The notes below the pieces were generated by a model. That model did no database searches. It was not told the origin of the DNA and was given only the letters and a program-made list of their open reading frames with translations. Positions 11,746 through 59,541 of a DNA stretch of 64,000 nucleotides are shown piece by piece. Origin of the DNA: Octopus sinensis (lineage: Eukaryota); contig NC_042998.1 of the NCBI RefSeq assembly GCF_006345805.1, positions 125,302,001-125,366,000 on the forward strand. The letters run 5' to 3'. The position numbers and the translations under genes are program-made. Within the stretch, counting starts at the first letter, position 1, and every line of letters begins with the position of its first letter.

Positions 11746-11944
11746 GTAGGTCCCAGGTTGAGTCGGGGTTAACCACAGTAAATAAGGTACTCAATACATA
11801 GCAGAGTAAATTAATTTATTATATAGAAGGAGCTTCTACAGGACTAGAACTGTTTCATTCAAAAGAAATCATCAGGAAGCTTCCTGATGATTTCTTTTGA
11901 ATGAAACAGTTCTAGTCCTGTAGAAGCTCCTTCTATATAATAAA
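11746..11944 (-). mobile_element. Truncated PLE pseudo-LTR fold-back in (TA)n: perfect 130-bp palindrome plus tail
   Basis: 11815-11944 is a perfect palindrome centred at 11879|11880. Extra tail at 11746-11814 and (TA)n on both sides. Contains a hammerhead. Confidence 0.8.
11878..11928. ncRNA. Type I hammerhead ribozyme (identical mirror copy on - at 11831-11881)
   Basis: agcttc-CUGAUGA-uuuc uuuu gaau-GAAA-cag uucuaguc cug-UA-gaagcu: stem I agcttc/gaagct, stem III acag/ctgt, GUA cleavage triplet at 11920-11922. Confidence 0.85.
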
Positions 11945-11996
11945 ATATATATATATATATATATATATATATATATACACACACACACACACACAC

Positions 11997-12205
11997 TTCT
12001 TTTACTTCTTTCAGTCATTTGACTGCGGTCAGAGTACTGCTGTAAAGAGTTTTAGTCGAAGAAATCCACCCTAGCACTTGTTCTTTATAAGCCTAGTACT
12101 TATTCTATCGGTCTTTTACCGAACCGCTAGGTTACGGGGACGTAAACACACCAATATCGGGTGTCAAGCGATGGTGGCGGAGGACAAACATAGACACAAA
12201 CACAT
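11997..12205 (-). mobile_element. SINE family B, 3' part
   Basis: Reverse complement matches the 3' half of the 24475-24860 element (ttcagtcatttgactgcgg, tacttattctatcggtct, gaaccgcta). Confidence 0.75.
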
Positions 12206-12979
12206 AAAATATATAAACTAGTAGTTATTTCATCGACCTCGGCGGAATTTGAACGTAAAGACAGGTGAAATACTGCAAAGTGCTTTGTGCTAACAATTCT
12301 GGCAACTTAAAAGTTAATATCGTGATGTCACAATATACATTTATCATAGGCTAATTAAAGTTTTTCCAGCTAAATTTTTATCTTGGCTAAATCTGCTAAA
12401 TAGTCAGTCAGTCATTAATTGTTTTATTTTATGTGTGTGTATATATATATATATATATATATATATATAATATATATATATATATATATATATATATAAC
12501 TCTCTCCTCCACCACAAATCTCCCAGCAAGAGCAACATCCTAATTAGTATTCTCAAGCTGGTCAATTAGTTTGTAGTTAGCTAGTATAAAAATGTACAGA
12601 GAGAGACTGCCTACTACAATGAACAGATTTCTTGCCGCACTCTTGCCGTGTCATACTTTTCGTCCAAAATAAAATTAATTTCTCACCCATTCCTCCACAT
12701 ACACTCACTCACTCACTCGCTTACTCAGTCTACAGCCGTAACCATAACAACACACTGACATTTGAACTGAAGTTTCATATATCCTGGTTCTTGTTTTAAT
12801 ATACAAATGTTTTACTATTTATTTCTATTAAACTTTGGAATGATGAAAGTCAATGCTGGGCATTGCACGTTTTAAACTAGGAAACCTCATCCTATCATAT
12901 CAACAAATTGTAATCCCCTGAATATTCTCACGCAGGTGTATATATATATATATATATATATATATATATATATATAATA

Positions 12980-13292
12980 ATAATATTAGGGAGTATATCC
13001 AAACTTACAGGGAAAACTAGATTTAGGATTAAATCAAATTTCACAGTATAAATATAAATTAAATTAAGAGATAAAACCACTATTAGGCAACGCAAACAGT
13101 GATAGACATAAACCAAAACATAAAAACCAAAAAATAAATATAATATATATATTTAAAATTTTTTTAATTTAAATTTTATATTTTATATATATATTATATA
13201 TATTATATTTATTTTTTGTTTTTTATGTTTTGGTTTATGTCTATCACTGTTTGAGTTGCCTAATAGTGGTTTTATCTCTAATTTAATTTATA
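12980..13292 (-). mobile_element. Fold-back element in (TA)n (about 95-bp inverted arms plus tail), probably a PLE end fragment without a ribozyme
   Basis: agagataaaaccactattaggcaacgcaaacagtgatagacataaacc (~13068-13115) is mirrored by ggtttatgtctatcactgtttgagttgcctaatagtggttttatctct (~13232-13279). It has an AT-rich centre, a one-sided tail and (TA)n flanks. Confidence 0.6.
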
Positions 13293-14039
13293 TATATATA
13301 TAAAGTGATGGTATGTTAACTTAATGTGACAGTCCCATGAAAGGGAAGAATGCTATTGCTATTTAGCCCCAGGAAACACCGTTTCCAGCTGGCCATGACA
13401 CTTTTCCTGTGTCCTTATGTTTTCAAAGGGGAGGTAAGCACCTCCACCCAGCAAAGCCAGTATCCAGACTAGTTTCAGTTTCATTGCTCATCATCAGTCT
13501 GGGGTAGCATGGCTTGCTAGCTGTCGATGATTATTTGCCTCTGAAAACATATATATTTCAAGCGAAATGCATTTACTGATTTCGAAAATTGAAATATTAC
13601 ATTTCTAAATCTCATATCCGAAAATTGTTTCAAAGGGATATATAATCCTGCTGGTTACCGTGTTTGCTCTTAAATTGGTTTTAAATGCCGGCTAACCACA
13701 GTGAATGCTGTAAATAACTGTTTTATAAAATTATTGATGTAGAAAATCTTCGTTCGCCTGACCATTATTAATATTATATATATATTATTGGTTTCAGCAA
13801 GAGGCTAAGGCCATACTGGGGCACTTTATATACGGGTGTGTATGCATATAGATATACATACTAGCGTATACACACACGTACATAAACTTATATACATACA
13901 TGCGTATCCACACACACACACACATATATATATATATATATATATATATATATATATATATATATGCGTATACATACACGCACACATATACAGTTGCGAG
14001 TATATACAGTTGTCTTTATCTCTAAGTATGTTAATACTA

Positions 14040-14518
14040 AGAGTTTCATTGCAAGCGTTTCTTCAGGACGCGCCAAACTGTCGTTGGTGGAATCTGGGTT
14101 TCTAGACTTGTTCTTATGGACTTCTTGAAGCTTTGCAACAGTTTTTGGCGAACCCGCTCGACCGCCTCTTCCGATGATAGTGGTCGTCCAGATCCTTTTG
14201 CCCTGCACAGACAGTCTTCCTCTTTGAATTTTTTTGTACCATGTCCAAGTCTTCATTGCCGTTGGTGACTATTTAGAGAACTCTCTCACAAATGTACGCT
14301 GCACAGTCTTCTTTGACTGTGTTTGAGCATACTCCAACACATAAAACGCCTTTTCTCTTCCAGTGAATGCCATTTCTATACCTGAAAAGATAAGCATATC
14401 AAACACTAAACACAAAATTTTGACCTGTTTCTTACATATGCTGTTAAAGTCATTTAAACAAGAACTGGCAAAGTTATTAGATTGCGAAATGATATCAAAT
14501 TTTTTTAAACACCCTGTA
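14040..14518 (-). mobile_element. Tc1/mariner-superfamily transposon 5' fragment (N-terminal HTH transposase region, DUF4817-like)
   Basis: TIR-like tacagggtgtttaaaaaa at the right end. ATG at 14373 gives MAFTGREKAFYVLEYAQTQSKKTVQRTFVREF...WYKKF...GSGRP...VWRVLKKRL with a stop and frameshifts. Confidence 0.75.
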
Positions 14519-15324
14519 TTTACTTAGATAAATTTCCTCTTGGAATGTGACAGCGAGTTCATGTCGTTTTCAAGGCCCAAGAATGCCAAAATTCATTTGG
14601 TGTTTACGCCAGCCGCTGCCGGGATGATCTGTTGTCTCCCTCCAATATATATTCTGTTCTCTAACACAGTACATCTTCGAGATTTTATCTCGGAGAAAAT
14701 CTTCAGTATGGTGCCAGTCAACGGTGTATAAACGTTAAATATAACACATACTTGGCTATTCTGCTTCAATTGCCTACACCGAGATTTTACTAATTAAATA
14801 TAACGATAAATTATATTATCTATATATTTCCTCAAAAAATGTGTAACCTTGTATTACTGAAATATATTTACATGATCCTTTCTGCTGTTCTATATACAGT
14901 TTATATAGCCATCAGTGCAGCCTTTATAACCGTGTGTGTGGAGGTGGGTGCTTTAGGATAAAATTGAAAACTGTCTATGTTGTTGATGTTTAATCTCAGA
15001 TCATCCCTAATCTAGGAGTCTTATGATGAAAAGTATTCTAACCGTTGCCGTCTTGATCTTTTTATCCGAGACTACTACAACGTCTAGTGTGTTCTTCCCA
15101 CTTTTAAAATGGTAGAATTGTGATTTGTGGGAGATATGGCTGCTATTTCTAGTAGATCGAGGCACTACATAGAGGTTCGTCTTTATGTAATGCGTGTATG
15201 TAATTTGCTCAGAGGTCATGAATTTCCAGCTTATACTCACGGGAACGTTCATCCCATTACTTTAAGCTAATGAAACAGCATCTTAGTGCTGTCAGTCTTG
15301 GCATTGTTCAACTATACTGTGGTA

Positions 15325-57914: not shown

Positions 57915-58138
57915 ATATTTCTATACTACCCACAAGGGGCTAAACACAGAGGGGACAAACAAAGGGATTAAGTCGATTACATCGACCCCAGTGCGTAACT
58001 GGTACTTAATTTATCGACCCCGAAAGGATGAAAGGCAAAGTCGACCTCGGCGGAATTTGAACTCGGAACGTAACGACAGACGAAATACGGCTACGCAGGT
58101 CGCCCGCGTGCTAACGTTTCTGCCAGCTCGCCGCCTTT
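57915..58138 (-). mobile_element. SINE family A, full length
   Basis: Reverse complement of 7341-7577. Confidence 0.9.
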
Positions 58139-58139
58139 T

Positions 58140-58362
58140 TATATATATATATATATATATATATACACACACACACTGTGTACATGTGTGTGTATATATA
58201 TATATAATATATATATATATATATATACACACACTGTGTACATGTGTGTGTATATATATATAATATATATATATATATAATATATACACACACTGTGTAC
58301 ATGTGTGTGTATATATATAATATATATATATATTATATACACACACTGTGTACATGTGTGTG
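58140..58362. repeat. Four-copy composite minisatellite (TA)n-acacacactgtgtacatgtgtgtg
   Basis: The unit recurs at about 58170, 58228, 58286 and 58339. Confidence 0.85.
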
Positions 58363-58779
58363 TTCCATGTACTGTAAATTATTACTTCAAGAAATAGATA
58401 TTGAGGAAATAAGTACCACACTTAAAAATAAGTACAGGCACATATGAGCAAGATGTGGCCTCTTGACCAGTCTAGGAAAGCAATGACTCCAAATATCCGA
58501 CTTGGACCATGACATATTGCCCAGTCAATGCCAGCGTTGAAAATTGAGCATACAATCATGATGATGTTTGTGCTTCAAGTTCAAATAGTCAACTTTGTTT
58601 CTGAGTAGATAAAATAGCTATTTGTCATGTTATAGGACCAACCCACTTCCCTCATAAATTTATAGTTTTGTACAAATGTAAGAAATCAACACTGTTAACT
58701 TTATAGTCATCTTAACTTCACAAACAACCAATATAGGCAATGTTAGAAATAACTGGAACAGTAATGTCAGATTTAATAC

Positions 58780-59127
58780 AGTGCCGCCTGACTGGCTCCC
58801 ATGCCAATGGCACATAAAAAGCATTCGAGCATGGTTGTTGCCAGTGCCGCCTGACTAGCTCCCATGCTGGTGACACATAAAATGCACCATTCGAGCAGGG
58901 TCGTTGCCAGTGCCACTCGACTGGCCCTCATGCCAGTGGTACATAAAAAGCACCCATTACACTCTTAGAGCGGTTGGTATTAGGAAGGGCATCCAGCTGT
59001 AGAAACTGCCAGATAAGATTAGAGTCTAGTACAGCCTTCTGGCTTGCTGGTCCTCAGTCAAACTGTCCAACCCATGCCAGCATGGAAAGAGGACGTTAAA
59101 CAACAGCAATGATGATGATGATGATGA
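58780..59127 (+). mobile_element. RTE 3' UTR/tail copy
   Basis: Matches 11300-11688, including the tandem units and (GAT)n end. Confidence 0.8.
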
Positions 59128-59180
59128 GTCTTTACCATTATCTTGCAAGTTCAAAATTACTTTTTGATCATCCCAGAGTT

Positions 59181-59541
59181 ACAGTTCTATATTTAAGAGA
59201 TGAGGAATTATGTACATTATTTACATTTGACGGATATTTGTCCTCATCTTGTTTGTTGTATACACAACGTTTTGGCTGATATACTCTCCAGCCTTCATCA
59301 GGTGTCTTGGGAAAATTTCGAACCTGGGTTCTCATTCCTAAGGTATATTTTGATATTGTTGTTGTTATTATTATTCAGGTCACTACCTGGAATCGAACTC
59401 GGAATCTTGGTGTTAGTAGCCTGCACTCTTAACCACTAAGCCATATGTCTATGAAGGCTGGAGGGTATATCAGCCGAAACATTGTATTAGCAACAAACAA
59501 GATGAGGACAAATATCCGTCAAATGTAAATAATGTAAATAG
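59181..59541 (-). mobile_element. tRNA-headed, hammerhead-bearing fold-back SINE with 12-bp TSD
   Basis: TSD catcccagagtt at 59169-59180 and 59542-59553. A box tggcttagtgg (59443-59433), B box gagttcgattcc (59400-59389), HHR near 59263-59306, inverted arms 59213-59298 and 59451-59536. Confidence 0.85.

Follow-up and report, generated by a model that had tools for sequence, protein, structure and literature searches.

The window analyzed here, a stretch of 64,000 nucleotides of the Octopus sinensis genome (C2:125302001-125366000; 2.72 Gb in about 30 large contigs), carries a type I hammerhead ribozyme (HHR) core with its stems at nine sites. These sites belong to eight repeat families, here called A to H, whose regions share no BLAST similarity (Table 1), which bears out the proposal of an earlier note on this DNA that at least seven unrelated HHR cassettes are present. 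The available data are compatible with a model in which the sites are very probably the HHR-bearing 3' ends, or pseudo long terminal repeats (pseudo-LTRs), of many families of Penelope-like elements (PLEs), together with two passengers that likely borrow the same enzymes, the fold-back being likely a by-product of insertion. Three features go beyond what the note had described: a G3-C8 core in family F, a tRNA-like head in family G and a 345-nt period in family H.

Hammerhead motifs, insertion anatomy and density

At the family level, the core CUGANGA/GAAA/UH, or a form with a compensatory 3-8 pair, is found together with stems I to III in all eight families. The shared core described earlier does not hold in its canonical form for F, which has a G3-C8 pair. 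Only A, B, C and F (four of the eight) have intact-looking copies in the window. The copies of D (U4C, along with an altered stem III), E (stem I perturbed by 3 inserted nt), G (G12A) and H (deletions) are damaged, unlike other copies of these families, which fold properly; the H copy is the site at 13464 that had been called imperfect. The short palindromic stem III, likewise described as common, is seen in F (AAUAUU) and as an 8-nt near-palindrome in A (ACAUGUGU), whereas C and E have an ordinary hairpin; in C, a 4-bp stem III is accompanied by a U10.1-U11.1 mismatch, and stem III of D is, at the family level, ACAGCUGU. A first look at the genome returned 1734 candidates for A, 511 for B, 153 for C, 1907 for D, 1962 for E, 1127 for F, 2369 for G and 1343 for H. 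Per family, 40 copies were scored and 20-25 loci examined.

The anatomy of these copies is that of PLE insertions. All eight families have fixed 3' ends, and 5' ends are ragged except in F, G and H. An inverted upstream copy accompanies 108 of the 195 family loci (A 13/25, B 13/20, C 17/25, D 2/25, E 17/25, F 13/25, G 17/25, H 16/25). This copy stops before the tail, at a second fixed position that lies 29-160 nt short of the main arm. In the window itself, the proposed combination of arm, inverted arm and tail stood in part: the inverted arm is present in five of the eight families (A, B, C, E and G), four of which also show a one-sided tail (about 150 nt in A, 121 in B, 66 in C and 29 in G), whereas D, F and H are single arms. 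Such an arrangement, with unrelated minimal-HHR families, opposite-strand pairs 100-700 bp apart and an inverted 5' copy plus tail, is known for PLEs (PMC4209133, PMC8557442; here as below, in the portions of the published texts that were available).

A PLE open reading frame (ORF) lies upstream of, or inverted against, the HHR in six families: directly in B, in longer copies of A, C, D and E, and across a 3' untranslated region (UTR) of about 1.5 kb in F. Five of these ORFs (A to E) are of the Hydra clade and one (F) is Nematis-like. Specifically, a Hydra-type endonuclease stands beside C copies at L276 and L366, 1.1-1.4 kb upstream of D at L077, with its end upstream of A at L015, and with its C-terminus about 150 nt upstream in longer E copies (L105 translation); the upstream sequence used for partner links of C, E and H was that of the loci named. 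The ORF of B shows the motifs DKT, CxCX5C, CxxC and CxH, lacks CCHH and has (TA)n targets, which matches the published definition and alignment of the Hydra clade, while its reverse transcriptase (RT) and GIY-YIG domain matches fall below Pfam cut-offs. The N-terminal RWK motif was not seen in B copies, which are truncated there. All 40 scored copies of B are 100% identical, so this family is very young. An assignment of B to Naiad was dropped, as the endonuclease is C-terminal. Families A to F are linked to a PLE ORF in this way, and no autonomous partner was found for G and H. Of the earlier picture of tiny non-coding fold-backs, most units conform, but B carries a truncated and frameshifted RT-endonuclease ORF, and the majority represent the ends of autonomous PLEs, truncated at the 5' side, and not independent retrozymes.

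This anatomy can be accommodated by a mechanism in which the PLE protein would nick AT-rich DNA on both strands and reverse transcription would begin from two internal positions, each downstream of the HHR, both steps being taken from PMC11167929. Two short cDNAs joined head to head would then yield an arm, an inverted arm and a one-sided tail. As stem III is palindromic in most of these HHRs, cleavage would require dimers or the help of a protein, and intact RNA would serve as the insertion template, so that passengers with a single HHR, such as G, whose promoter lies upstream of its cut site, would keep their 5' part. Family G would owe its transcription to RNA polymerase III (Pol III) as a PLE passenger.

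The number of motifs was compared with shuffled sequence. A strict type I HHR descriptor finds three matches in the window (19066+, 20412- and 24163+), whereas 100 shuffles of it, made block by block with dinucleotides preserved, average 0.01. A wider descriptor, which allows an extra base after A9, a palindromic stem III and a C-G, U-A or G-C pair at 3-8, finds five, one of them false, against 0.57 in 30 shuffles. An Rfam scan of the window with an E-value threshold listed no hammerhead among its 78 matches. In 100 stretches of 10 kb, taken at round coordinates across all 30 large contigs (1 Mb), 43 motifs in 29 clusters were found versus 3.65 in 20 shuffles, a ten-fold excess; 28 have C3-G8, 13 U3-A8 and 2 G3-C8, and 12 decoy cores gave 0-5 matches each on the same stretches. 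The 95% interval of 31-58 motifs per Mb extrapolates to about 75,000-150,000 intact-looking motifs in the genome, on the order of 100,000. The window is ordinary in this respect, with 2.8 descriptor matches expected per 64 kb (P(>=5)=0.14). The earlier suggestion that many PLE- or retrozyme-like families colonize this genome at high density is thus upheld by the copies, their insertion anatomy and the random-stretch counts.

Pairing of stem I provides a second, independent measure. With the stem I requirement dropped, the random stretches hold 41 matches (37 distinct) versus 6.85 in shuffles, and 14 of the 37 have a stem I of at least 4 bp, in which all four Watson-Crick types are represented; among cross-locus pairings the share is 2.4%. 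In A-like subfamilies, 4 of 14 pairs show compensatory changes and 91.5% of cells are paired, which carries modest weight as the six sequences, from three subfamilies, are related. Stem covariation is therefore seen in these subfamilies and in stem I of the random stretches, but not within the G3-C8 lineage.

Table 1. Positions of hammerhead families and neighboring features in the window
Feature	Position	Strand	Core (C3)	Description
1.1-kb element	701-1824			inverted ends of about 285 bp, 93% alike; MITE-like (miniature inverted-repeat) or old fold-back
Family C	11746..11947	both	11884(+), 11875(-)	perfect fold-back of two 68-bp arms, 11812-11879 / 11880-11947; 66-nt tail 11746-11811, minus arm only
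Fold-back beside H	13051-13293			separate element, 95-bp arms; inverted pairs at many loci
Family H	13300..13613	-	13497(-)	decayed single copy; palindromic stem III ACUAGU
Mariner fragment	15424-15696			transposase helix-turn-helix
Family D	18058..18371	-	18312(-)	single arm and tail; core reads CCGAUGA (U4C)
LINE-like fragment	18333-18686			long interspersed element-like; abuts family D
Family A	18846..19354	+	19066(+)	arms 18846-18964 (inverted) and 18994-19354 (main); cut predicted after 19138; tail ~19199-19340
Family E	20076..20286	+	20200(+)	inverted arm 20076-20143, main arm 20156-20286
Family B, inverted 5' arm	20293..20501	-	20412(-)	without tail
Family B, ORF	20502..22695	+		5'-truncated Hydra-clade PLE: RT, frameshift, linker, GIY-YIG endonuclease
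Family B, 3' UTR / pseudo-LTR	22696..24403	+	24163(+)	predicted cut after 24241; tail 24283-24403, then (TA)n
Family F	40206..40414	-	40390(-)	209-nt single arm and tail; predicted cut after 40354
Host gene exons	47395-47820, 53182-53610			MIEAP (PF16026) match, E 1e-27; exon near 53300-53600
Tandem array	55741-56140			AT-rich, 35-bp units; false wider-descriptor match at 55865
Family G, main arm	59180..59447	-	59301(-)	tRNA-like head 59376-59447, A box 59443, B box 59398; (AAT)n linker; minimal HHR (G12A); tail 59180-59208
Family G, inverted 5' arm	59451..59540	+		without tail

The window has a G+C content of 36%, and (TA)n and short interspersed elements (SINEs) are abundant in it. The 1.1-kb element had no second copy among the sequences examined, and no hammerhead was seen inside the fold-back beside H. 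Outside the window, HHR elements of different families often lie nested or adjacent to one another, in 3' UTR microsatellites (L358:4465-4578, L368:7055-8595, L191). Another abundant minimal-HHR family carries U at core position 6 (CUGUNGA) in 11 of 18 related motifs examined, with U4C in four others, and so has a further natural core that departs from the canonical one; its sites include L236:5716(-), L260:7056(+), L265:9109(-) and L366:~7900(+), the last downstream of a Neptune-like endonuclease.

Families F, G and H

In family F, the core sequence is GUGAACA, from G3 to C8 and A9, followed by an extra G, a 5-bp stem II and GAA; the palindromic stem III, U17 and a stem I of 7 bp complete the motif. 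When positions 3, 7 and 8 are left free, this pattern has 3,812 matches in the genome versus none for a reversed-pattern control; among 100 matches listed, 96 are G3-C8 and none C3-G8, across several loop II subfamilies, and 54 of 60 copies examined also have G3-C8. A pattern with a shorter stem III gave 72 further matches versus 0 in the control, with unrelated loop II sequences and any base at position 7. Long copies of F extend upstream by about 1.5 kb and reach an RT-GIY-YIG ORF that has a CX3CxxC linker and a CCHH motif, and F would accordingly be the pseudo-LTR of a PLE that is Nematis-like by motif; the label follows from the short CX2-5CxxC linker and the CCHH-type GIY-YIG domain, which we take to be those of Nematis. 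The G3-C8 pair amounts to a compensatory swap of the C3-G8 tertiary pair, with partial cleavage predicted to persist. As an engineered change, C3G/G8C partly rescues cleavage, also for a PLE HHR (PMC11167929, PMC8495972), and natural covariation at 3-8 has been reported as U3-A8 (Perreault 2011, PMC3088659). A natural G3-C8 core was not found in the portions of the literature searched, which hold engineered examples only (Lunse et al. 2017 lay outside this scope and may hold such variants), and the pattern had no match in metagenome contigs.

Family F copies fall into two 5' classes, which part at a site resembling a branch point and splice acceptor (window 40414; L134, L247, L290, L296-L325). 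Short copies start at a fixed ..GAG|ATG (27 copies), and long copies read ..CTAAC..TCTCAG|ATG (26 copies). As a guess, the short copies may be 5'-end cDNAs of a spliced transcript. A GT at the candidate donor site is present in just 3 of 30 long copies, and a genome-wide pattern for the junction, built with a long first exon, returned a single match, which is unrelated.

Family G consists of 7 nt, an A box, a B box 45 nt further on, (AAT)n, a stretch of about 55 nt, an HHR of minimal form with an extra A and an ACGU palindrome, another 55 nt or so and a 29-nt tail. In 9 of 10 matches, 44-45 nt separate the two boxes, in keeping with the spacing of A and B boxes in tRNAs. With an A box 7 nt from a defined 5' end, no coding capacity and a high copy number (13 insertions in 1 Mb, or about 35,000 copies by extrapolation), G has the attributes of a SINE, yet its 3' end is of PLE type, unlike the LINE-type tail of a SINE. 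The sequence suggests that G is likely a tRNA-headed SINE copied by PLE enzymes, its likely origin being the fusion of a tRNA-derived SINE, at its (AAT)n tail, with a PLE end. No precedent for a PLE-driven tRNA SINE was found in the portions of the literature searched, a scope that left Repbase and SINEBase outside.

In family H, a segment lying 200-255 nt downstream of the core is found again upstream at an offset of 340-350, giving a period of about 345 nt with one type I HHR per unit, and copies longer than one unit occur at L178 and L187. Retrozymes are recognized by a tandem unit of 150-400 nt with one type I HHR, and H has both. Its insertions also show PLE-type inverted arms (at 16 of 25 loci) and a tail of about 55 nt. 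As such, H likely moves as a tandem or circular RNA of about 345 nt copied by a PLE RT. Mobilization of retrozymes by PLEs has previously been inferred from co-occurrence and phylogeny (PMC7229834; bioRxiv 10.64898/2026.07.22.740005, in part). A different HHR family, with a long stem II and a 12-nt palindromic stem III (L231, L252, L289), occurs as direct pairs about 480-500 nt apart in two random stretches and is a further retrozyme-like candidate.

Alternative explanations

Several observations weigh against the reading of these sites as PLE ends with two passengers, or against parts of it. The loci of each family were the best matches to the window copy, which is a non-random sample; D has an inverted copy at just 2 of 25 loci, the ORF links of A and of D are one locus each, and no autonomous PLE partner of G or H was found among the loci examined. 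In G, the HHR part is missing after 2 of 13 heads, a T4 run precedes the HHR in about half of the copies, and the heads were called neither by a tRNA covariance model and Rfam nor by default ARAGORN (18 loci), a lowered threshold returning noise; SINE heads commonly lack a tRNA covariance match. In F, stem I shows no covariation within the G3-C8 lineage (1.78 versus 1.87 cross-locus pairs at 30 loci, many of them decayed) but stays GUCA/UGAC-like, and the swap may be a single event carried along. Cleavage, transcription and circular RNA are, for this genome, predictions from sequence: no RNA run was listed as a source of these sequences, and the four sequencing runs examined were contigs, which show neither ends nor strand. 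A more radical objection attributes the motifs to chance, or to ordinary DNA hairpins, in a genome rich in A+T and in repeats. It can draw on the false match at 55865, on random-DNA U3-A8 matches that are in part close to background (2.2 per Mb in shuffles) and on minimum-energy folds without an open core for several copies. Nevertheless, the ten-fold excess over shuffles, the independent stem I pairing with its compensatory changes and the fixed location downstream of PLE ORFs leave this explanation next to no credibility, and a chance origin is already refuted by the shuffle and stem I controls.

For G, an alternative is that it is not one element but an independent tRNA SINE whose (AAT)n tails are repeatedly struck by PLE ends, target preference making head and hammerhead neighbors. 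The linker is indeed an expandable (AAT)n run, the PLE endonuclease prefers ATT (PMC11167929, in part), some G copies follow other SINE tails (L148, L150), and two of the 13 heads lack an HHR part. This is nonetheless rather improbable, given that the head lies forward at 16 of 25 loci, in the inverted arm at 10 and in both at 6, which requires co-reverse transcription with the HHR part, and that all eight random stretches with a head match also hold the adjoining HHR part, with a constant junction sequence. A more serious, though still unlikely, alternative holds that the F motif is a dead or structural relic whose swap occurred once and was copied along, as insertion needs no cleavage. HHR mutants of an Anolis PLE are without effect on insertion in vitro, stem I does not covary within the lineage, and the extra G after A9 and U17 may slow cleavage. 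Against this, for a compensatory change at two sites the pair must be under selection; across subfamilies with unrelated loop II sequences, G10.1-C11.1, the palindrome and the rest of the core are kept while position 7 varies; and the matching double mutant partly rescues cleavage in vitro. The full claim, that F is the first natural G3-C8 hammerhead, an active ribozyme in thousands of Nematis-like PLE copies, and that PLE enzymes drive a true tRNA-headed SINE as well as a retrozyme, both with a PLE footprint, is put forward as tentative, at slightly less than an even chance.

Relation to known systems

The collection of HHRs in this window is known PLE biology at unusually high density; what appears new is the G3-C8 core of F, the passenger with a tRNA-like head and the PLE footprint of the retrozyme-like unit. 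If PLEs drive G and H, then parasites of the SINE type, familiar from LINEs, would also exist for PLEs, and the partnership of retrozymes with PLEs could be read directly from insertion structure. G and H thereby bear on which machinery mobilizes HHR-bearing SINEs and retrozymes. A natural G3-C8 pair bears on whether PLE hammerheads are selected for catalysis and argues for a catalytic fold even though cleavage is dispensable in vitro; descriptors that fix C3-G8 or U3-A8 would overlook this lineage.

The comparisons that follow draw on the available portions of the sources, which also include PMC3884650, PMC2377424, PMC6962438, PMC8967140 and PMC8969392. The PLE HHRs of Cervera and de la Pena 2014 (PMC4209133) share with the window families the type I fold, palindromic stem III, the extra base after A9, unrelated families, opposite-strand pairs, mostly truncated copies and the U3-A8 variant, but the G3-C8 pair of F is not among the variants named there. 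The density differs as well: about 39 per Mb are found here with the descriptor used, versus about 9,000 per genome, deemed remarkable, in Xenopus tropicalis (PMC4209133). Published counts further comprise more than 6,000 HHRs in 16 families of a coral, up to 120,000 axolotl retrozymes and 235 Rfam hammerhead matches in the giant squid, all of them, like the Xenopus count, obtained with differing descriptors.

The Hydra clade of Craig et al. 2021, including Hydra-1_Obim (PMC8557442), matches family B in DKT, CxCX5C, CxxC and CxH, the lack of CCHH, the (TA)n targets and an HHR near the 3' end, and, like the window families, it has a 5' copy in inverted orientation together with a tail. An octopus Hydra family whose HHR differs is already in print (PMC8557442); none of five window HHR strings is present in the portion of the supplement of Craig et al. 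2021 that was available. The window adds at least five further families, with tails that reach 66-160 nt versus the published 30-40 nt.

For the two passengers, the closest counterparts are retrozymes and schistosome repeats. Mussel retrozymes, with repeats of 350-390 nt, resemble H in its non-coding unit of about 345 nt, single type I HHR and extra-unit copies, but retrozymes have a canonical HHR, whereas that of H is minimal and H copies carry the PLE insertion footprint itself. The schistosome Sm-alpha and Sj-alpha elements (PMC6765202) are, like G, short non-coding repeats with a Pol III-type promoter followed by a hammerhead; they are described as tandem repeats that multimers release, in contrast to G, which is dispersed, carries a minimal HHR of the dimer type and has the inverted arms and one-sided tail of a PLE. 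Finally, engineered C3G/G8C hammerheads and natural U3-A8 cores both display compensation at 3-8, and F differs from the engineered form in being natural and fixed in about 3,700 copies.

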